Notes under the pieces: generated by a model
Seen by the model: the letters and a program-made list of their open reading frames with translations, nothing else
Told to the model about the DNA's origin: nothing
Database searches by the model: none
Made by a program: the position numbers and the translations under genes
Assembly (NCBI GenBank): GCA_021399395.1
Contig: JAAFKJ010000059.1
Span: 1 to 19,180, forward strand
Reading direction: 5' to 3'
From: Candidatus Heimdallarchaeota archaeon
GTDB taxonomy: Archaea; Asgardarchaeota; Heimdallarchaeia; Heimdallarchaeales; Heimdallarchaeaceae
DNA length: 19,180 nucleotides
In this document: one piece after another, positions 4,295 to 17,620 of the stretch
Layout: the number at the start of each line of letters is the position of its first letter
Numbering within the stretch: position 1 is the stretch's first letter

Positions 4295-5086
4295 ATGATA
4301 GTTGTTATTACAGGTAGTACTCAAGGTATTGGATTTGCTTTAGCAAAAGAGTTTCTAAGATATGGTGATGATATCGTAATCTCTTCTCGTAAAATCGACC
4401 GAGTAAATGATGTTGTTAAAGTACTAGAATCAGAATTTCCTGAATCCAAAATTCTAGGATTCAAATGTGATGTGACCCAACCAACAGATCTTGAAAATCT
4501 AGCAAAATCCACTGTTGATGCTTTAGGTGTTATTGATATATGGGTCAATAATGCTGGAACTAGTGGATTTGAATATCAACCACTACAAGACTGGGATGAT
4601 GGAACACTTAAGCAAATAATAGAAACTAACATGCTTGGAACATTATATGGTTCCAAAGAAGCTATCAAGGTTATGACTGAACAAAAGCATGGCAAAATCT
4701 TCAACCTAGCTGGTATGGGGTCTAACGGAATGGCATCACCTAATTTGGCAGCTTATGGAGCATCTAAGGGGTCAATTCCACAGTTAACAAAATCCCTTGC
4801 AGGGGAACTTAAAGGAACAGGAGTCTTGGTTAACCATGTTAGCCCAGGTATTGTACTAACAGATATGATTACAACTAATGTACCTCCACAAGCAGTTTCA
4901 ATCTTCAATATACTAGCAAGTAGACCTGAGAATGTTGCTAAGTTTCTAGTGAAAAAGATGAGAGCAGTAGAAAAAAGCAAAGCCAAAATTAATTACTTAA
5001 ATTCATTCAAAGCTTTCTGGAGATTTATGACCGCTGGTTTTAGAAAAGGAAAATATTTTGACGAGGAAGGAAATTTCAAAGGTTAA
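4295..5086 (+). CDS. Classical short-chain dehydrogenase/reductase, NOL/NYC1 (chlorophyll b reductase)-like subfamily
   Basis: TGSTQGIG, CDV, IDIWVNNAG, YGASK and SPGIVLTD motifs. FNLAGMGSNG and NILA..PE.VA recall plant NOL/NYC1. Confidence is for the SDR call; the subfamily is less certain. Confidence 0.9.
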   Translation: MIVVITGSTQGIGFALAKEFLRYGDDIVISSRKIDRVNDVVKVLESEFPESKILGFKCDVTQPTDLENLAKSTVDALGVIDIWVNNAGTSGFEYQPLQDWDDGTLKQIIETNMLGTLYGSKEAIKVMTEQKHGKIFNLAGMGSNGMASPNLAAYGASKGSIPQLTKSLAGELKGTGVLVNHVSPGIVLTDMITTNVPPQAVSIFNILASRPENVAKFLVKKMRAVEKSKAKINYLNSFKAFWRFMTAGFRKGKYFDEEGNFKG

Positions 5087-6726
5087 TCAAGATTTTCTTC
5101 TTCTGTCTGTGATACTAATTCTTGTTTTTTGAATAATCCCTTTATTCTGCGATAGAAGCTTATAGTGCTAGTTTTGATATATTTGAAAAATTCCTTGAAG
5201 TCCTCTTTGAGATTTTTATAATTCTCTTTTTTGAAAACAGCCTTGTAATATGAAACAGGAATTAATGGAGAAATCAGTATTACTACACCCAACAGGAATG
5301 CAGGATGCAGATATCGAATTGTAATCATAAGTGACCAGTTATATGCATATATTGCAGCAATTAAAACAAGCAATAATAGAATAGTAAGCGTAAGCCATAA
5401 AAATTGTTGGAACATAGTTTTGGAAGAAGTATTTACTTCTTCATTTGTACCTTTTTTTCTTCTTAGTAAACATGCTTGGAATTTATTAATAGAGTTGGTA
5501 ATGAGAATTACACTTGTAATTACGAGAAATGGGTTGAGAAAAGCATTATAGTATTTGTAGATCCCCCTTGAAATGAAAACGTGGACAATGAAAAAAATCC
5601 AAGTAATGTAATAGATAAAGGTGCTATCATCAGAGCTTAATTTCTTAGCGTTAAAGTGTCCTAGGAATAATCCGAAACCATAGAACAGAATGAAAGGGAG
5701 CATAGGTATGCTCACCCACATATAGAAATTAGCTAATCCTTCAGCTCCCCAATAAAGAATCGTATTCGCAAAAGTTACACCATGTTTTAAACTTGCAGCA
5801 GTATTATCTACATACCAGAGAGGCCTACCAGCTGCAAAGATTCTTCCTATGTAAAGATGTGGAGTAAGGAAAATCCAAGGTATCGAAAAGATCAGAAAAG
5901 ATACTAGAAATGGTCTCAAAAATTCCTTAAATGCTTTCTTGATATCATACTTTTTCCAGATATAAGAGAACAAAGGAATAAGCATAAACAAGGGCATCTG
6001 TTTTGTCAACCATGCTATGGTAAGAGAGTAAGCGGATAGTTTGTATTTCTTTTTCATGAATAAAAACAATGTTAGTAAGGTGAAGAATGTCATCTGAGGG
6101 ATGTTGAAATAATAAGCATCGACATATAGAAGATTAATAGGCATGAAAACATACGCTATTGCACCGATTAAACCAAGGATGTGTCTTTTCACTTTGGTAT
6201 CTTTTAGTGAAGAGAAATTGATGATGATGAGATAAATCATAACAGCTGAAAGTCCCTCAAAATTAACAGCAGTCCATTTAACAGCACTATTGACTAAAAA
6301 CGCTCTAGATGCTCCTGGATAAGATAGATTTAGAAGCAGAAAAGTAAAATATAATCCATAGATAAACATAGGTCCATAGAGATAATAATCCAATGGAGTA
6401 CCTTCGTATCTTCCATAAGGGTTCCACCAATCAATAAATGCATCTAAAAATTCAGTATAATAATAAGATGCGTCTCTGTAAACTTCAAAATACCAGGTAA
6501 CGGATTCATCCGATGGATTAGTCCATGTATAATCAAAGTATAACAAATCATCAAATGGACCAATATAACTTTGAATCCAACTAGCAATTTCTGTTGTGAA
6601 ATAGAGAGCAAAAATGAATAAAAGTGCTGAGAGAACAATTATAATTAGAATATTTGGGGTAAAAATACTTCTAATTTTACGAAACTTTTTTGGGAAAAGT
6701 TTCCTTTGTTTTCTCAAATTACTCAT
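5083..6726 (-). CDS. Polytopic membrane protein, probable GT-C fold glycosyltransferase (GT87 / GPI-mannosyltransferase-like)
   Basis: About 10-12 hydrophobic segments. A long first loop carries RDASYYY, WNPY and YLYGP, and a later LTKQMP motif is typical of GT87-like enzymes. ATG at 6726 preferred over TTG at 6735. Confidence 0.65.
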   Translation of the reverse strand: MSNLRKQRKLFPKKFRKIRSIFTPNILIIIVLSALLFIFALYFTTEIASWIQSYIGPFDDLLYFDYTWTNPSDESVTWYFEVYRDASYYYTEFLDAFIDWWNPYGRYEGTPLDYYLYGPMFIYGLYFTFLLLNLSYPGASRAFLVNSAVKWTAVNFEGLSAVMIYLIIINFSSLKDTKVKRHILGLIGAIAYVFMPINLLYVDAYYFNIPQMTFFTLLTLFLFMKKKYKLSAYSLTIAWLTKQMPLFMLIPLFSYIWKKYDIKKAFKEFLRPFLVSFLIFSIPWIFLTPHLYIGRIFAAGRPLWYVDNTAASLKHGVTFANTILYWGAEGLANFYMWVSIPMLPFILFYGFGLFLGHFNAKKLSSDDSTFIYYITWIFFIVHVFISRGIYKYYNAFLNPFLVITSVILITNSINKFQACLLRRKKGTNEEVNTSSKTMFQQFLWLTLTILLLLVLIAAIYAYNWSLMITIRYLHPAFLLGVVILISPLIPVSYYKAVFKKENYKNLKEDFKEFFKYIKTSTISFYRRIKGLFKKQELVSQTEEENLD

Positions 6727-6790
6727 TGAATTCAATATAAGAGAAATAATATCAGTTTTAAAGATTATTGAAGAATTTTAAGTCAAGGAA

Positions 6791-7419: not shown

Positions 7420-8310
7420 ATGAATGGACAAGGTTCAAAACAGAATATTGACGATTTAGTAAAGGAAGGTAGCTACCAATGGATATTGGATGAATTTCCT
7501 TTTGGTGTTTCAGTTCAAACTATAGATCGAGAAATACTCTATGAGAATGAAGCTGTAAAAGATTTAGTTGGGTCATATATTACCAGGCATTGCTTCAACA
7601 GATGGCATTATCTACCGGGTAAAGGGGATGAACCTTGCAATGACTGTCCAGCAACTATTGGTTTCAAAGATGGTAAATCACATAAAGTTTTTAGAAAAAC
7701 ACTAGGTCCTAATGGAGAAGATATTTTCATAGAAATACAATTCCTTCCAGTTAAAAATGAGAATCAAGAGATCGATAAATTCATAGAAATAATAACCAAT
7801 GTTAGTCTATTAGATAAAGCAAAAGTTCTTTCTAGTACACCTATAGAAGAAATAAGCCAATCCCTTCAAGTTTCATTTGTAAAGTTTGGTGAGACTGGCG
7901 GAGAAGTTATCTCTACTGACAATCTTGATTTTGCTAAAAGTGAAAATCTAGAAGAAATAGTTGTCCAATTAACAGTCTATATTTTCAGCGGAGTTATGCA
8001 AGGATTCGAGGATCAAGAAGGACTTTTTGGACCTTTTCCAGTTTTAGATAAGACAGAATATTTAATGGAAACTTATCTCTTCAGAATAAAAGATGATGAA
8101 GCTAAAGATCCGAGATTAAAAGGGATGCAACCTTCTATGATCTTATTCTTTTTCCCAAGAGAATATTATTTCTTATTTGAGAAAAGAAATGATATTGAAG
8201 AATTTATCTCACAAAAGATTACGGAGTGGGGGAAATTACAGAATATAACACAAGAGTCTCATAAAACCTTTGCAGAAGATATAAGGAATTTTCTTGAAAA
8301 ACTCATCTAA
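7420..8310 (+). CDS. PAS-domain protein (Cys-containing PAS) with an uncharacterised C-terminal domain
   Basis: ILDEFPFGVSVQTIDREILYENEA PAS start; HCF...PCNDCP Cys cluster; PVKNENQEIDKFIEIITNV PAC-like end. The C-terminal half (GLFGPFPV, KDPRL) shows no kinase, GGDEF or HTH motifs. Confidence 0.75.
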   Translation: MNGQGSKQNIDDLVKEGSYQWILDEFPFGVSVQTIDREILYENEAVKDLVGSYITRHCFNRWHYLPGKGDEPCNDCPATIGFKDGKSHKVFRKTLGPNGEDIFIEIQFLPVKNENQEIDKFIEIITNVSLLDKAKVLSSTPIEEISQSLQVSFVKFGETGGEVISTDNLDFAKSENLEEIVVQLTVYIFSGVMQGFEDQEGLFGPFPVLDKTEYLMETYLFRIKDDEAKDPRLKGMQPSMILFFFPREYYFLFEKRNDIEEFISQKITEWGKLQNITQESHKTFAEDIRNFLEKLI

Positions 8311-10880: not shown

Positions 10881-10987
10881 TGTAATCAAACTAGCTCAAC
10901 AAGAACTCTATTTTAATTTATTTATTAGAATATGTTTTACAAAATGCTCATTTTTTTCATATATGTTATTTTGCACAATAAGAAGTT

Positions 10988-11030
10988 ACGATATACCATG
11001 ATAGAACGATATACCAGAACAACGATATAT
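10988..11030 (+). repeat. Three direct repeats ACGATATA(CCA) in the DUF1015/actin divergent intergenic region
   Basis: ACGATATACCA at 10988-10998 and 11006-11016; ACGATATAT at 11022-11030. Start-to-start spacings are 18 and 16 nt. Confidence 0.8.
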
Positions 11031-11042
11031 CTTCATAAATCC

Positions 11043-11050
11043 TTATTAAT
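11043..11050 (+). promoter_or_regulatory. Candidate TATA box of the actin-like gene
   Basis: TTATTAAT lies 25-32 nt upstream of ATG 11075 and directly downstream of the repeats. Confidence 0.45.
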
Positions 11051-11074
11051 TTGGAAAAATAATATTATTTGAAA

Positions 11075-12538
11075 ATGACATCAGATAATTCAAAGTCTAA
11101 ACCAAGACATTGTGGAAAAATTATGCATCGTCTTTATATCCGTAAAGGCACAGAGAAGAGAAAATGGATAGCTGTAGGCTATTATTGTGATGAATGTTCT
11201 GAAATGCTTAAAGAATATGATTTGAAGAAGATGGTGACTATTCATGAATTTCCAACTGATGCTTTCAATCTAGTTGATAGAATAACCAATCCACAAAGTC
11301 TAGTCTTGGATCCAGGTTTTTCGCTTACTAAAGTTGGTTTTACTGGTGAGAAGATTCCAAGATTCATTTTTGATTCTGTTGTTTATTATAATGAGTCAGG
11401 AGAGTCGTTTATTCAACTAGCAGAAAAAACTGAAACTACTGTTAAGATAAAGAAGAAACACAGAATATTTAATATTGTAGAAAATAGAGAGGAATTGAAT
11501 AAGGACGTTTTTGAAATATTTCTCACGCACATATTTGAAAAACTCAAAGTCAAATCTTCGAAAACAGCTGTTTGGGTTATCGAAAAATATCATAATGCAA
11601 ATTATTCTGATTTCCTAAAAGGCAGATTGGATGTAATAAATAATAGTTCTTTACCTGAAAAAGCTAAACAGCATCTCAGGAAAGAGAAAAAAACCGAGTA
11701 TGTCAATGGTTTTGAAACAGCATCCTCAAACCGAAGAGCTATGGCTGAAGTCTTCTTTAATGTTTTCAAAACCCCTAAAGTATATTTCTCTGTAGGTGAG
11801 TTACTCTCACTTTATGCAGATAATCAAGTGACAGGAGTGGTTGTTGGAATTGGTGCTAATTCAACAAGAATAGTACCAATTTATGAGGGATTTATTATTT
11901 CTCATGGTTTAAGTATTCGTGAAAGAGGAGGGGTGGATGTTGTTAATCAAGTTAAAGAGTTTATCACTAAAGTCGGATTAAAAACCCCCAAATCATATCA
12001 TGTAGATTATCAAGTTCAAAAAAACACTCGATTAGCTTCAGAAGAATTTTGCTATATTGCAGATGATGTTAAATGTGAAATGAAGAAACGTAAAGAATCT
12101 GATAAGTATGCAAGATCAGTTAATGTTGTTCATGATATTCACATCAAACTAGATGAAATTCGATACCTTGCACCAGAGATTCTCTTCGAAAATGAACCTC
12201 TTAGTATCTTGAACAAGCCTGGAGACCTTGCTGATGCTGTTATTGAATCTATTCAGAAGTGTGATAAGGGATTAGCTAAGAGTCTATATTCTAACATCTT
12301 GCTAGTGGGTGGGGGGACATTGTATGAGGGTTTTAGTAAGAGATTTTATCAAGATCTTAAATCGAAGATTCCTGACAATATAGTATTCAATGCAACAGCA
12401 AAACCTGACAGATTAATTTCAGCATGGATAGGAGGATCAATTCTATCAGGTATGAAACTATTTGAGGAGAGGAAATTCTGGGTTTCTAAAGCTGAATATG
12501 AAGATAAGGGGTCATCAGCTGTAGATAGATGTATTTGA
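11075..12538 (+). CDS. Divergent eukaryote-type actin-family protein with an N-terminal zinc-ribbon-like domain
   Basis: LVLDPG...KVGFTGEKIPR, LLSLYA..TGVVV, VPIYEGF, RYLAPEILF, LYSNILLVGGGTLYEG, SAWIGGSILS and WVSKAEYEDKGSSAVDRCI all parallel actin motifs. The N-terminus carries HCG...YYCDEC. ATG 11075 preferred over TTG 11069. Confidence 0.93.
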   Translation: MTSDNSKSKPRHCGKIMHRLYIRKGTEKRKWIAVGYYCDECSEMLKEYDLKKMVTIHEFPTDAFNLVDRITNPQSLVLDPGFSLTKVGFTGEKIPRFIFDSVVYYNESGESFIQLAEKTETTVKIKKKHRIFNIVENREELNKDVFEIFLTHIFEKLKVKSSKTAVWVIEKYHNANYSDFLKGRLDVINNSSLPEKAKQHLRKEKKTEYVNGFETASSNRRAMAEVFFNVFKTPKVYFSVGELLSLYADNQVTGVVVGIGANSTRIVPIYEGFIISHGLSIRERGGVDVVNQVKEFITKVGLKTPKSYHVDYQVQKNTRLASEEFCYIADDVKCEMKKRKESDKYARSVNVVHDIHIKLDEIRYLAPEILFENEPLSILNKPGDLADAVIESIQKCDKGLAKSLYSNILLVGGGTLYEGFSKRFYQDLKSKIPDNIVFNATAKPDRLISAWIGGSILSGMKLFEERKFWVSKAEYEDKGSSAVDRCI

Positions 12539-15670: not shown

Positions 15671-15973
15671 TCAAATCACCTTAATTATCACGCTGATTCA
15701 GTTTATTCTATAAAATAAAGGTTATTGTCTCACCCATAATTTTCAAAGCTAATAAACAGATGTTACCAATAAAGAGATGAATAACAATCTATTAGGAGAC
15801 CAACAACTAAGATTTTTTGAAAAAATATTGAATGTATTTATAAATGGAAGAATAATACAACGATAAAAAACGCTTAAAATACAATTTTCTGAAACTAGAA
15901 GCCCTTTTAATCGCTTTTGTATTGTGAATGTTATGGTAAGGTTTTTTTACTCAAGTTTAGAATAATGTGATTG

Positions 15974-17620
15974 ATGGCTATACCAGATAAAGATAAACAG
16001 AAGTCAGAACTTGAAAAGACAATGCAGAAATTTTCAGATTTACTGCCTTCTGTTAAACCAGAAGTTGATCCTGCTGAAAAAGCGCTAGTAGTAATAGATG
16101 GAACAGCTAAGTCTAAAGCAGCGGTTCTAGTTGCAGGAGAGCTAAATAGACATTTTGGTACAAAAATAGATGTAATTTGTTTCTATACTGAACAACCACC
16201 CGCCAAAACAGAAGCATCCAAAGAGAGTTATGAGAGTTCATTGTCCTTTGCATATGAACATCTTAAAAGTAAGGATTTTGAGATTAAGGGTGAGGTTGTT
16301 GAAAATATAGATAATCTGAAATCTATTCTAGATAATGTAATTCAAAGTGTAGAATATGATATAATTTTGGTACCATCTTCATTTATAGGATTGAAAGAAA
16401 CTAAAATCCAAAAAGATGATGAGGAAGATGAAGAAGCAAGCATAACAGTATTAGGAGATGTATTCGAATACTTGCTTGAAGAAATCAAAAATATTCCAGT
16501 TCTACTAATAGAAAGTGAGAAAATCAATTTAGAGCTTCTTTGGAAGAACATTCCAATTGTTTTCAGCAATACAAACCAACTCAGCTATTTGTTTGAGAAA
16601 GCAATGAAATATAGTCTAAAGAAATCTGAAATTCATCTTCTAATAAATATCAATCCAATCTTCCATGAGGACAAAAATCAAGAAGAATTGGATGCACTAA
16701 TAAATAGAAGTATTGAAGATTTGGAGATATTTGAAAAAGCCAATTCACAGGTATTTAAAGAATCTTCCAGATATGTTGATACACACCTTCTATCTACAGA
16801 TAATTTTGAAAATTTCAAGAAAGAATTATATACTTTTGGAAAAGATGTTGGAATTCTAATTGTTTACATGACTTCAAAACATTCCAGTCTTTATGGATTC
16901 TTTACTGAACTTCTTGAAGATAGTGAAATCACTTTTCCGATCCTCATAGCTAAAAGAAAAATTGAGACTAAGAAAGAGGAAGTTGAACAACCAGAGGAAG
17001 AGGGAGCAGAAGATGAACCTTCTAAGGATGAAGTGGAAGAAGAAGTAGAAGTCAAAGAAGAAGAAAAGGAAGAAGAAAAAATAGTGATAGATGAATCCTT
17101 AAAAGAAGAAATAAAAGAAGAAGTCAAGAAAGATATTCTAGGAATTACTGAACCTTCTGAAGAAGTGGAAGAGGAAACTGTGGAAGAAGAAACTGTGATA
17201 GAAAAAGCTATAAAAACTAAAATAGAAGAAATTAGTAAAGAGGAGGAAGAGGAAATGTCAGAGATTGATGAAATAAAAGAAGAAGTCATAGAAGAGGTTA
17301 TTGAAGAGATCAAAAAAGAAGTCATTGAAGAAGTCAAAGATGAACCTAAGAAAGAGATCAAAAAAGAGGTCACAAAAGAGCTCAACAAAGAAGAAAGTAT
17401 TGAGGAATTAAAAGAATCTATTCTTGAAGAAATCAAGGAAGAAATCATAGAGGAAATCAAATACGAACTCAAGAAAGACCTCAAAGAACCCAAGAAAGAA
17501 CTCAAAGAAAAAGTCATTGAGGAAATGAAAGAAGAAGCTGAGGAAGCTGAAGAAAAGCCCTCTGATGAAGAAGAAGAAGAAGAGGAAGAAGAAGTTACAT
17601 CAAGAATGGACTTCGAATAA
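15974..17620 (+). CDS. Protein with two divergent universal-stress-protein (USP)-like domains and a ~220-aa Glu/Lys-rich tail
   Basis: ALVVIDGTAKSKAAV...G..IDVI, YDIILVPS and LGDVFEYLL...IPVLLI match the USP pattern. A second, weaker repeat runs from WKNIPIV to FPILIAK, followed by a low-complexity acidic C-terminus. Confidence 0.7.
   Translation: MAIPDKDKQKSELEKTMQKFSDLLPSVKPEVDPAEKALVVIDGTAKSKAAVLVAGELNRHFGTKIDVICFYTEQPPAKTEASKESYESSLSFAYEHLKSKDFEIKGEVVENIDNLKSILDNVIQSVEYDIILVPSSFIGLKETKIQKDDEEDEEASITVLGDVFEYLLEEIKNIPVLLIESEKINLELLWKNIPIVFSNTNQLSYLFEKAMKYSLKKSEIHLLININPIFHEDKNQEELDALINRSIEDLEIFEKANSQVFKESSRYVDTHLLSTDNFENFKKELYTFGKDVGILIVYMTSKHSSLYGFFTELLEDSEITFPILIAKRKIETKKEEVEQPEEEGAEDEPSKDEVEEEVEVKEEEKEEEKIVIDESLKEEIKEEVKKDILGITEPSEEVEEETVEEETVIEKAIKTKIEEISKEEEEEMSEIDEIKEEVIEEVIEEIKKEVIEEVKDEPKKEIKKEVTKELNKEESIEELKESILEEIKEEIIEEIKYELKKDLKEPKKELKEKVIEEMKEEAEEAEEKPSDEEEEEEEEEVTSRMDFE
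16952..17617 (+). repeat. Low-complexity GAA-rich coding repeat (E-[IVL]-[KI]-[EK] tetrads and poly-Glu)
   Basis: For example EIKEEVIEEVIEEIKKEVIEEVKDEPKKEIKKEVTKE and ELKESILEEIKEEIIEEIKYELKKDLKE. Confidence 0.85.

Follow-up and report, generated by a model that had tools for sequence, protein, structure and literature searches.

An open reading frame in the stretch of Heimdallarchaeota DNA analysed here (19,180 nucleotides, hereafter the window) encodes an actin-related protein with an additional N-terminal module, very likely a zinc ribbon. The frame occupies positions 11075-12538 of the forward strand and specifies a protein of 487 residues, here called ZnR-ARP. No other part of the protein is as well conserved as this ribbon, which a variable linker joins to a divergent actin fold. 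The original prediction concerned the span 11075-11300, which corresponds to residues 1-75, and the peptide quoted there is present in the window. The relevant features are listed by window position.

10990-10997, 11008-11015 and 11024-11031, no strand assigned: three GATATAYC boxes in the divergent intergenic region, the third of them palindromic
11043-11049, forward strand: TATA-box-like TTATTAA, ~26 nt before the ATG at 11075
11075-12538, forward strand: ZnR-ARP gene, 487 codons plus stop, ATG start (alternative TTG at 11069)
11099-11212, forward strand: putative zinc-ribbon module, residues 9-46, with invariant residues, predicted strands and knuckles, and a pairwise identity of 0.69
11102-11116, forward strand: knuckle 1 of the module, PRHCG
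11123-11185, forward strand: long basic/aromatic β-hairpin of the module, residues 17-37
11186-11197, forward strand: knuckle 2 of the module, CDEC
Residues 44-46 of the module: predicted third strand
11213-11290, forward strand: variable linker, residues 47-72, with a short helix (47-56) followed by a low-confidence stretch, and including the non-conserved Met53
11291-12535, forward strand: divergent actin fold, residues 73-487, from Pfam Actin (3.1e-59), AF2 and Foldseek
11297-11350, forward strand: phosphate-1 motif, residues 75-92, aligned to actin 7-38, with D79, G81, K86 and G88 retained
11585-11722, forward strand: family-specific insert, residues 171-216 (~46 in all), falling between positions that correspond to actin ~107 and ~113
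11831-11890, forward strand: remodelled phosphate-2 motif, residues 253-272, aligned to actin
12293-12343, forward strand: adenosine motif, residues 407-423, with GGGT retained, aligned to actin GGTT

ZnR-ARP residue 75 is aligned with actin residue 7 in the PDB comparisons, whose phosphate-1 strand is reached by about residue 9 in the conventional actin of the same genome. The N-terminal extension therefore measures ~72-74 residues, and the ~75 extra residues claimed in the original prediction are borne out by both the Pfam and the PDB alignments. Also as predicted, the extension holds an H-C and a CxxC knuckle around a basic, aromatic hairpin, in frame with the actin; a linker lies in between.

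The fusion itself is almost certainly real. Two ways in which it might be illusory had been raised from the outset, namely translation from a downstream start (for instance M53, at the sequence MVTIHEF) and the joining of two genes by mis-assembly; M17 is a further candidate for such a start. It is true that two database gene calls (P0003 and P0004) begin at M17, and that loci L001 and L007, from two species, have no canonical start codon before knuckle 1 or anywhere upstream of M17. However, the DNA behind P0004 (L002) encodes an upstream ATG and the full ribbon, and knuckle 1 is retained in frame as xPxHCG, with its P, H and C invariant, in 19 of the 19 loci that include the 5′ end. The start-codon column of the alignment holds ATG in the window and in L002, and GTG in L015. 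Residue 53, the Met that opens MVTIHEF (window position 11231), is Met in only 1 of the 36 aligned relatives, while a conserved TATA-like element sits 5′ of the ribbon. As regards mis-assembly, contigs from two studies cross the ribbon-actin junction: one of 1403 bases, from a different study, spans 11054-12456 with 0 differences, and two more also bridge the junction. In addition, 21 independently assembled genomes carry the fusion, in reading frames of 482-526 aa wherever no contig end intervenes. Given the rarity of Met53 and the bridging contigs from another study, both a wrong start and an artefact of assembly can be set aside; the opposite reading is already close to refuted and we find it scarcely credible.

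Pairwise identity is 0.69 in the ribbon, compared to 0.48 in the actin body and 0.28 in the linker. Residues M17, Y21, R23, G25, T26, R29, W31, G35, C38 and C41 are invariant in the 36 aligned relatives, and P10, H12, C13 and K15 are conserved in at least 90% of them. The conservation of the His and Cys residues, on which the original prediction had been made to depend, is confirmed: P10, H12, C13, C38 and C41 are invariant in all 20 DNA-derived locus translations. As judged from the alignment, such an N-terminal pattern is not due to chance. Arg, Lys, Tyr and Trp abound in the hairpin between the knuckles, and residues 7-46 have a net charge of +7 in the window protein and of +7 to +11 across 34 complete rows; the corresponding ranges are +5 to +12 for residues 1-46 and -12 to +7 for the body.

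An AF2 model of the module alone has a pLDDT of 83-88 over the first 40 residues and places strands and knuckles in zinc-ribbon order. Strands are predicted at 18-24, 30-37 and 44-46, which, as read from strand positions, agrees with the three-stranded antiparallel sheet that a zinc ribbon has between and beyond its knuckles. In the full-length model the ribbon falls to pLDDT blocks of 62-79, compared to 83-88 alone, and linker residues 50-63 are below 50. Passages of PMC5906684 describe the zinc ribbon as two metal knuckles, each at a β-hairpin turn, with the consensus CPxCG. Both knuckles of ZnR-ARP fall at predicted turns in the AF2 model; knuckle 2 is CxxC, and knuckle 1, as PxHCG, departs from CPxCG letter for letter. 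The candidate ligands H12, C13, C38 and C41 would bind one Zn, making this a Cys3His ribbon. H12 is probably the fourth ligand, because in alignment A3 the first Cys of the free-standing relatives' CxxC(G) falls on P10, and two relatives (P0113 and P0130) have Cys at the H12 position. Adjacent His and Cys are unusual as two ligands of a single zinc. A precedent for a Cys3His ribbon reportedly exists, to go by the title of one paper.

The actin fold of the body is well supported. Pfam Actin (PF00022) aligns residues 74-485 to profile positions 5-407 of 410 (E 3.1e-59; 201.1 bits against a cut-off of 27), and the full-length AF2 model has a pLDDT of 86.9 and a pTM of 0.82. Foldseek matches this model to actins at E ~1e-33, with target-normalised TM scores of 0.82-0.89 and 25-27% identity, which corresponds to the four-subdomain actin fold; structures of the actin/Arp4/Arp8 module (8a5p) are among the matches. 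The best PDB sequence matches are the Hodarchaeales 'HC1 actin' (9wc4, 7.8e-48), eukaryotic actins and Arp1. Within the family, for phosphate-1, D79 and G81 are each found in 35/36 relatives, K86 in 34/36 and G88 in 36/36; for the adenosine motif, the counts are 36/36 for G412, 35/36 for G413 and 33/36 for G414. Where actin has D154, D157 and H161, ZnR-ARP has G (N in most relatives), A and R, respectively. Across the family, Asp is found at 258 in 0/36 rows and at 261 in 1/36, Arg at 265 (the H161 position) in 34/36, and Gln at the actin Q137 position in 1/36. The PDB alignments leave the insert unmatched and pick up again at residue 217 (actin 113); within the insert, G183, L193, P194, K198 and L201 are near-invariant.

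In one respect the original prediction does not stand, as it called the body a eukaryote-type actin. Two conventional actin genes in the same genome score 448 and 437 bits against Pfam Actin, while ZnR-ARP scores 197, and its identity to the nearest conventional Asgard actins is 28-29%. In a quick, midpoint-rooted tree whose ARP rows comprised Arp1 and Arp4 only, the ZnR-ARPs form a separate clade on a long stem (SH-aLRT 100) and do not nest with either of those rows. Taken as a divergent paralogue whose nucleotide site is remodelled and which carries a conserved ~46-residue insert, ZnR-ARP is by its sequence the third actin of the cell, ARP-like and not conventional.

The original prediction suggested looking for the same fusion in other Asgard archaea. 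It occurs in 21 genomes, and the same 21 score in a ribbon scan of 400 genomes and in a body scan of 83 genomes of the class. In the ribbon scan the ribbon was never found apart from the ZnR-ARP actin body, and no ribbon-less orthologue was found in the 83 genomes of the class. A metagenome contig collection yielded two loci, both ribbon-actin fusions, and a viral contig collection held no relative. All carriers fall within one order, in two groups of family rank, so ZnR-ARP is a lineage-specific invention and not an ancestral Asgard or eukaryotic trait.

Free-standing homologues of the ribbon, also suggested as a check, were recovered as well. When 1.84 billion representatives were searched with a profile, 41 matched at E<=1e-3, and 28 of these were fetched; left out were P0024 and P0034, which are known family members, and 11 long proteins. 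These long proteins (308-2940 aa) were each matched several times, at profile positions ~26-61. Many of the 28 are proteins of 37-99 aa with the pattern CxxC-x(n)-RxYIR-x(n)-W-x3-G-[YW]-x-C-x2-C, and L046, an ORF of 91 aa from a further Asgard genome, belongs to the same small-ribbon family. This unnamed family (P0117, P0119, P0125, P0134, the minis P0123 and P0132, and L046) is homologous across the whole module, shares RxYIR ... W-x3-G-[YW]-x-C-x2-C with the ZnR-ARP ribbon, and comprises its true closest relatives. Its members differ from ZnR-ARP in being free-standing, in tandem or fused to something other than actin, and in mostly having a classic CxxC at knuckle 1 instead of PxHC. One of them, P0145, places the same PxHCG-type ribbon ahead of an unrelated domain of ~390 aa. 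That C-terminal domain had no Pfam, PDB or NCBIfam match; in the ESM Atlas it is closest to unnamed bacterial clusters (0.95-0.96), with BtrH_N/Peptidase_C39-like proteins at only 0.86-0.87, so P0145 looks enzyme-like and not nucleic-acid-related, which we take as a lead only.

Database searches attach no established name to the module. A cluster look-up gave no informative name for 10 ribbon relatives, and a word-indexed search with A3 gave 7 matches. With residues 1-75, Pfam returned nothing significant, only zf-C2H2_DHX34 at E 0.1-0.24, and no Pfam family, TFIIB, TiaS, GRF, LIM and FYVE included, exceeded its cut-off for 10 free-standing relatives, for the 21 ribbon-family members that make up A3 or for 8 further members. 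The best sub-threshold result was for the free-standing relative P0141 against Zn_ribbon_TiaS (26.2 bits against a cut-off of 27.3, first knuckle only). The ribbon had no match above threshold in NCBIfam or PHROGs, and a single-sequence query of the PDB gave only PHF5A (E 3.7). Searching the PDB with the A3 profile, we obtained only weak, summed matches to tandem C2H2 arrays at their YxCxxC and judged them spurious. Foldseek with the ribbon model gave no significant match (best MqsA in the PDB at E 0.78, best in BFVD at E 0.3). In the ESM Atlas the best score for the ribbon was 0.89, to unnamed viral clusters; this is below the usual level of recognition and is a lead only.

We propose that the ribbon may serve as a portable targeting handle, in which the invariant Arg/aromatic sheet face (Y21, R23, R29, W31 and Y36) would grip a polyanionic, sequence-conserved ligand. 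This would most likely be DNA or structured RNA, bound in the manner of three-stranded 'type-2' zinc ribbons; we put the chance that the ligand is a nucleic acid somewhat short of even. The charge pattern is in favour, since the positive charge of the ribbon is constant while that of the body varies. So is the fold class, as, according to passages of PMC5906684, the type of zinc ribbon built as a three-stranded meander is prevalent among nucleic-acid binders and touches nucleic acid via aromatic and charged residues of the sheet. Portability is supported by P0145, with the same ribbon on an unrelated domain, although its enzyme-like appearance (again, a lead only) speaks against a nucleic acid as the ligand. 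The ribbon also matches no named nucleic-acid-binding family, and among the 14 loci examined no DNA- or RNA-related gene is conserved nearby. Moreover, zinc ribbons also dock proteins and bind ubiquitin, according to passages of the same source, and a basic, aromatic surface could equally bind lipid. As for the body, with both phosphate-2 aspartates and the equivalents of Q137 and H161 lost, and the phosphate-1 and adenosine motifs kept, it would probably still bind nucleotide and hydrolyse it poorly. A nucleotide that is bound but poorly hydrolysed would suit a static ARP-type platform rather than a dynamic filament former; such a platform could, for instance, seed or cap the two conventional actins of the cell or give them a docking site. 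In its most specific form, the proposal has a sequence- or structure-specific ribbon that would hold an ARP without hydrolytic activity, within one polypeptide, on the chromosome or on a particular RNA. There the protein would recruit or seed conventional actin, as a counterpart of chromatin-bound nuclear ARP modules or of ParM-ParR-parC segregation systems that arose independently in the class of archaea closest to eukaryotes, and the ribbon would define a new family of portable 'address tags' shared with other cargo proteins such as P0145; this form we regard as decidedly unlikely.

The same invariance could also reflect docking to a conserved protein, such as the acidic surface of the filaments of the cell's conventional actin, a protein resembling ubiquitin, or part of some large machine; in that case ZnR-ARP would work on filaments, as a nucleator, capper or brancher. 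Invariant Arg residues with no exchange for Lys, together with invariant Tyr, Trp, Gly and Thr, fit a single co-evolving partner, and the genome's two conventional actins are possible partners. Protein-binding zinc ribbons exist, including ubiquitin-binding ones (PMC5906684), one free-standing relative scored just below the LIM domain cut-off (21.3 against 22.9 bits; a lead only), and the same ribbon on an enzyme-like protein would fit varied cargo brought to one protein hub. However, no partner gene is linked in the 14 loci, no significant Pfam match to a protein-binding zinc-finger family was found, and a 40-residue segment with a net charge of +7 to +11 would be more typical of polyanion binders. 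On balance we think a docking role rather unlikely. A membrane anchor, with the hairpin binding anionic archaeal lipids to hold the ARP at the membrane or in protrusions, would account for the conserved positive charge and the exposed Trp and Tyr. Bacterial MreB and FtsA have built-in membrane-targeting elements, and the module-linker-body layout resembles that of membrane-tethered bacterial actin homologues. Yet generic lipid binding usually tolerates Lys/Arg exchange and drift, whereas the ribbon is the most conserved region, with invariant Arg, Gly and Thr; it lacks a hydrophobic loop and an amphipathic helix (the helix that comes after it is part of the variable linker), and Pfam gave it no significant match among lipid binders of the FYVE, C1 or PH type. 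We think an anchor very unlikely. We give a similarly small chance to a role within the protein itself, either regulatory, by docking on the actin body and plugging or capping its cleft or its barbed-end groove, or in zinc-dependent self-association. Ribbon and body are never apart, as expected of one co-evolved unit, and the conserved family-specific insert could be a docking site, but the linker is variable and predicted with low confidence, the ribbon is modelled with less confidence in the full-length protein than alone, and this ribbon type is also found on an unrelated protein and in free-standing minis.

ZnR-ARP has the fold and the phosphate-1 and adenosine motifs of conventional Asgard actins (Lokiactin type), eukaryotic actin and Arp1 (PF00022), but shares only 25-29% identity with conventional actins and forms its separate, long-stemmed clade. 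Conventional actins have ~375-390 residues and no extension, while ZnR-ARP adds ~72 residues of ribbon and linker and the insert of ~46, and residues equivalent to D154, D157, Q137 and H161 are replaced. Nuclear ARPs (Arp4, Arp5 and Arp8, of INO80/SWR1-type remodellers) are likewise divergent; they do not polymerise, are held at chromatin through added segments and have family-specific inserts. The likeness to ZnR-ARP is one of concept, with DNA binding by ZnR-ARP being a proposal only, and the tree with Arp1 and Arp4 rows gives no evidence of common descent with a eukaryotic ARP class. To our knowledge, the extensions of eukaryotic ARPs are not zinc ribbons. ParM is positioned via ParR/parC, a DNA-bound adaptor, and in MreB, FtsA and ParM, as possibly in ZnR-ARP, an actin fold is placed by a short targeting element or adaptor. 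These proteins belong to other actin subfamilies, however, and their anchors are amphipathic helices or separate adaptors, not a fused zinc ribbon. The classic Cys4 or Cys3His ribbons of TFIIB/TFB, TFIIS, RPB9 and Rpp21, and the C-terminal one of TiaS, share with ZnR-ARP the two hairpin-turn knuckles flanking a sheet (predicted, for ZnR-ARP), a CxxC second knuckle, and an aromatic, charged sheet face. They differ in the first knuckle, which is CPxCG in classic ribbons and PxHC, with adjacent ligands, in ZnR-ARP.

The original prediction did not recognise this architecture among described Asgard actins, and no zinc-ribbon-actin fusion came up in the titles and abstracts of the Asgard actin/ARP literature searched or in passages from PMC9834061, 10.1101/2025.02.26.640444, 10.1101/2025.07.24.666526, 10.1101/2021.02.04.429862 and PMC5906684. 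The second of these papers mentions an enrichment of Heimdallarchaeaceae, the family of the present organism. Supplementary ARP catalogues or trees, such as the actin tree behind PMC9834061, may hold members without comment. Asgard archaea are studied for the origin of the eukaryotic actin system; characterisation of their conventional actin is under way, but their ARP-like paralogues are functionally blank. Here the handle is built in and extremely conserved, which offers an experimental entry, since the ligand of the ribbon would tell where an archaeal ARP works. If it is DNA or RNA, ZnR-ARP would be the first prokaryotic actin-fold protein directly tethered to nucleic acid, in functional parallel to nuclear ARPs; if it is actin or membrane, a new mode of cytoskeletal regulation would be indicated. 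Also uncovered here is an unnamed family of zinc ribbons, notable for the unusual first knuckle PxHC.

The gene is solitary and flanked by opposite-strand genes. Neighbourhoods were compared for the window and 13 loci with enough flank, drawn from L001-L021. In 11 of these 14, a divergent DUF1015 gene precedes ZnR-ARP, which is followed on the opposite strand by genes for a PanE-like protein, a 2-hydroxyacid dehydrogenase and an aminotransferase V; L010, L014 and L016 have different neighbours (PGK, FeoAB). This synteny is merely genus-deep and plausibly reflects shared ancestry only. An operon partner for ZnR-ARP was considered and rejected, with the gene standing alone and the neighbour order only genus-deep in the 14 loci.

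Archaeal TATA boxes lie about 26 nt upstream of the transcription start. The TTATTAA element is at about that distance from the ATG, which implies that the mRNA, predicted to include the ribbon, would be leaderless or nearly so; the element is kept as TTTATTAA/TTTATAAA in 6 loci. The GATATAYC boxes have no other occurrences in the 19-kb window and give 4 matches when the palindrome is counted on both strands, a number also reached in 18 of 200 shuffles. All three boxes are kept in register in 6 loci (alignment A4), and they form a possible operator.

The gene has two possible starts in the window:

11069 (TTG) or 11075 (ATG) to 12538, + strand: ZnR-ARP open reading frame

When read from the ATG at 11075, the frame yields a product of 487 residues (P0001), opening with the peptide quoted in the original prediction. 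Pfam Actin (PF00022) matches residues 74–485 with an E-value of 3.1e-59 and 201 bits (cut-off 27). When the protein is aligned to solved structures, residue 75 pairs with actin residue 7, and only residues 73–106 and 217–485 can be aligned; the stretch between them, 107–216, is longer than the matching part of actin and unlike it. These limits imply that about 72 residues precede the actin fold, close to the 75 or so that had been predicted, and that a longer and dissimilar stretch lies at 107–216.

A word-indexed search yielded 105 proteins at E ≤ 1e-3; the first 43 are relatives with 33–76% identity. Where source labels are given, these read ‘actin family protein’ or ‘hypothetical protein’ from Heimdallarchaeota or Heimdallarchaeaceae, except for one partial sequence labelled Thorarchaeota. 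Seven partial sequences of 267–344 amino acids were omitted and the other 36 were aligned. We see that M17, Y21, R23, G25, T26, R29, W31, G35, C38 and C41 are invariant in this alignment, with P10, H12, C13 and K15 at least 90% conserved. Pairwise identity averages 0.69 over residues 9–46, 0.28 over 47–72 and 0.48 over the actin part (73–487). Judged by its conserved columns, the extension is no ragged tail.

Database entries P0003 and P0004 begin at M17; in the DNA behind P0004 (locus L002), however, an ATG lies further upstream and the first knuckle is complete. Twenty-one loci were fetched from species-representative genomes, and in all 19 where the 5′ end is present, xPxHCG is encoded in frame upstream of M17. 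P10, H12, C13, C38 and C41 are invariant in 20/20 DNA-derived translations, against the possible objection that the His/Cys residues are not conserved. A downstream start at ‘MVTIHEF’ had been raised as a possible objection; its Met, residue 53, is Met in only 1 of 36 rows, so this start lacks support. The start-codon column is GCG in two closely related species (L001:2249–2310 and L007:2653–2720), where no ATG, GTG or TTG was found between the upstream stop and M17, though the frame still encodes knuckle 1; translation begins either at a non-canonical codon (an ATT follows) or late enough to produce a truncated ribbon. One relative annotated at 519 amino acids (P0009; L049:3624–4874) has 31 additional N-terminal residues that align with nothing, and these look like an over-long gene call from an upstream in-frame Met. 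Among assembled contigs of public runs, a 1403-base contig from a different study spans 11054–12456 with zero differences, and contigs from two other public runs cover 10890–11344 and 11188–11407. These independent contigs over the junction exclude mis-assembly.

An AlphaFold2 model built with the full alignment gave a mean pLDDT of 86.9 for the actin body (pTM 0.82), 62–79 for the N-terminal module, and below 50 for residues 50–63. When the module, or handle, was folded alone with the DNA-derived alignment, pLDDT was 83–88 across the first 40 residues, and the following elements were predicted:

R11-H12/C13-G14/K15-I16: tight turn
Residues 18–24 and 30–37: strands of a long hairpin
Residues 38–41: CxxC at the next turn
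Residues 44–46: short third strand
Residues 47–57: helix

In PMC5906684, the zinc ribbon with a three-stranded meander is described as a knuckle, an extended strand, a hairpin, a knuckle and a third strand. The predicted handle has this order of elements, and we infer its strand pairing and ligand geometry. The conserved residues and the module-alone model together bear out the H-C and CxxC knuckles that had been proposed around a basic, aromatic hairpin, in frame with the actin fold.

A profile of the DNA-derived alignment was searched against 1.84 billion representative proteins, giving 41 matches at E ≤ 1e-3, of which 28 were fetched. Five of the matches are the ZnR-ARP family itself or its fragments, and many of the remainder are free-standing homologues of 37–99 residues with CxxC, then RxYIR, then W-x3-G-[YW]-x-CxxC. 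Four small proteins of 118–218 amino acids (P0109, P0120, P0128 and P0137) contain two ribbon copies, and in P0119 a single ribbon leads into a long acidic tail. In the metagenomic proteins P0110 and P0145, the latter a longer member of the same cluster, a PxHCG-type ribbon and a linker precede an unrelated domain of ~390 residues, for which there was no match in Pfam, NCBIfam or PDB. The Atlas neighbours of this domain are unnamed bacterial clusters (0.95–0.96), with weak nearness to BtrH_N/Peptidase_C39-like clusters (0.86–0.87).

When the ribbon is aligned with its free-standing relatives, P10 of the ZnR-ARP family lines up with the initial Cys of the classic knuckle, and two relatives have P-x-C-C-G where the actin family has P-x-H-C-G. 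From these relatives and this register, His12 is most plausibly the fourth ligand in a putative Cys3His site; it has no non-ligand replacement in the 34 rows that cover it or in the 20 DNA-derived translations. No named family for the module scored above cut-off in Pfam, NCBIfam, PHROGs, PDB sequence, Foldseek against PDB and BFVD, or the ESM Atlas. In the nearest cases, one free-standing relative narrowly missed the cut-off for the C-terminal ribbon of TiaS (26.2 vs 27.3 bits, matching just the first knuckle), and another that for LIM (21.3 vs 22.9 bits). The characteristic features of a zinc ribbon are present in the handle, but it fits no named ribbon family and its first knuckle, PxHC, is unusual.

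Foldseek places the model of the body among actins (E ~1e-33, target-normalised TM 0.82–0.89, 25–27% identity). The phosphate-1 residues are retained (D79 and G81 in 35/36 rows, K86 in 34/36, G88 in 36/36), as are the adenosine motif GGGT and E323. Other stretches depart from actin:

Window 11585–11722, residues 171–216: conserved family-specific insert of ~46 residues between the equivalents of actin ~107 and ~113, with no actin counterpart
Window 11831–11890, residues 253–272: remodelled phosphate-2 loop, both actin aspartates absent across the family

Where actin has D154, Asp occurs in 0/36 rows (Asn 23, Gly 5, Ser 5, others 3); where it has D157, Asp occurs in 1/36. The H161 position is Arg in 34 of 36 rows; Gln is found at the Q137 position in one, with a near-invariant adjoining Glu. 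Within the insert, which is predicted to be mostly helical, G183, L193, P194, K198 and L201 are near-invariant. Nucleotide binding is probably retained, and hydrolysis probably poor.

Two conventional actin genes are present in the same genome as well, in frames of 390 and 384 amino acids:

Contig C48:1239–2348, − strand: conventional actin gene (L023), Pfam Actin match
Contig C37:21058–22170, − strand: conventional actin gene (L024), Pfam Actin match

Pfam Actin scores in this genome are 448 and 437 bits for the conventional copies versus 197 for ZnR-ARP. The assembly, 82% complete, thus holds three actin-family genes. A quick maximum-likelihood tree was computed from 47 rows, comprising the window protein, 13 family members, the two actins of the same genome and 31 other word-search matches, mostly unnamed metagenomic proteins of unknown origin. 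In this tree, which has no outgroup and only Arp1 and Arp4 among ARP classes, the ZnR-ARP family forms one clade (SH-aLRT 100) on a long stem apart from all else, and no nesting with Arp1 or Arp4 rows was seen. The body is an actin-family member outside the conventional Asgard actin group, and we read it as ARP-like. Of the predicted ‘eukaryote-type actin’, the family assignment stands and the conventional type does not, given the separate clade, the remodelled phosphate-2 loop and the insert.

The ribbon profile was searched in 400 genomes of the phylum, and a strong match (E 1e-29 to 1e-36) was found in 21: the window's genome, 17 of the 24 others in its genus, 2/2 in a second genus and 1/1 in a second family of the order. 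The four genomes from the other three genera of the window genome's family, two of them single-contig assemblies at 92–93% completeness, gave no match, and neither did 15 genomes from the order's other two families; absence from incomplete genomes (72–92% complete) is not proof of loss. Elsewhere, the only matches were weak ones in three short open reading frames; one of these, L046, encodes a classic free-standing ribbon, 91 amino acids long. A body-only query (75–487) against 83 genomes of the class gave 291–655 bits in the same 21 genomes, as full-length orthologue-grade matches or contig-end fragments, with frames of 482–526 amino acids where no contig end cuts them. All other body matches were of conventional-actin grade (~160–177 bits, residues 143–413 only) or weaker. 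Each carrier genome has one copy, and neither a ribbon-less orthologue nor a body-less ribbon of ZnR-ARP type was found in the two scans (400 genomes for the ribbon, 83 for the body).

In layout, a strongly conserved basic module is followed by a variable flexible linker and the ARP-like body. Residues 1–46 are consistently positive in net charge (+5 to +12), while the body spans −12 to +7. As a portable module, the ribbon is also found free-standing and on another cargo protein, and it probably serves as a targeting device for the ARP-like body. Its two long predicted strands carry the invariant residues Y21 and R23, and R29, W31 and Y36. According to PMC5906684, the three-stranded zinc ribbons of TFIIS, RPB9, Ku and Rpp21 contact nucleic acids via aromatic and charged residues. 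As the strand residues of the handle are of this kind, we tentatively place nucleic acid first among its possible ligands. A conserved protein, for instance the actin filaments of the same cell, ranks second as partner and seems rather unlikely; binding to membrane lipid would be improbable, as would an intramolecular or self-association role.

In the searched literature no zinc-ribbon–actin fusion is described, in line with the original prediction, though supplementary tables could list members without comment. Public records name the relatives ‘actin family protein’ at most. From general knowledge, ZnR-ARP may functionally recall nuclear ARPs with DNA-contacting extensions, and likewise bacterial actin homologues with built-in anchors. 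The architecture is real and cleanly delimited, offers an obvious way in for experiments and is confined to one lineage.

The gene is flanked by opposite-strand genes: DUF1015 lies upstream, and downstream come a PanE-like reductase, a 2-hydroxyacid dehydrogenase and an aminotransferase. This order recurs in 11 of 14 loci examined, for which shared ancestry alone plausibly accounts; at L010, L014 and L016 the neighbours are instead phosphoglycerate kinase, FeoAB and a nuclease/phosphatase-family protein. No conserved partner gene was found beside ZnR-ARP among the 14 loci. Sizeable open reading frames without a Pfam match at E ≤ 1e-3 lie at 5083–6735 (−), 7420–8310 (+) and 15971–17620 (+), encoding 550, 296 and 549 amino acids.

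Three GATATAYC boxes and a TTTATTAA-like element are common to six loci; in the window, this element lies ~26 nt upstream of the ATG at 11075:

Window 10990–11049: three GATATAYC boxes, the third palindromic, then TATA-like TTATTAA, in register in six loci

The boxes are spaced by 18 and 16 bp and lie in the intergenic gap that separates ZnR-ARP from the divergent DUF1015 gene. With the usual archaeal promoter geometry, transcription is expected to begin just ahead of the ribbon. The boxes and the TATA-like element look like a candidate operator and promoter for some regulator.
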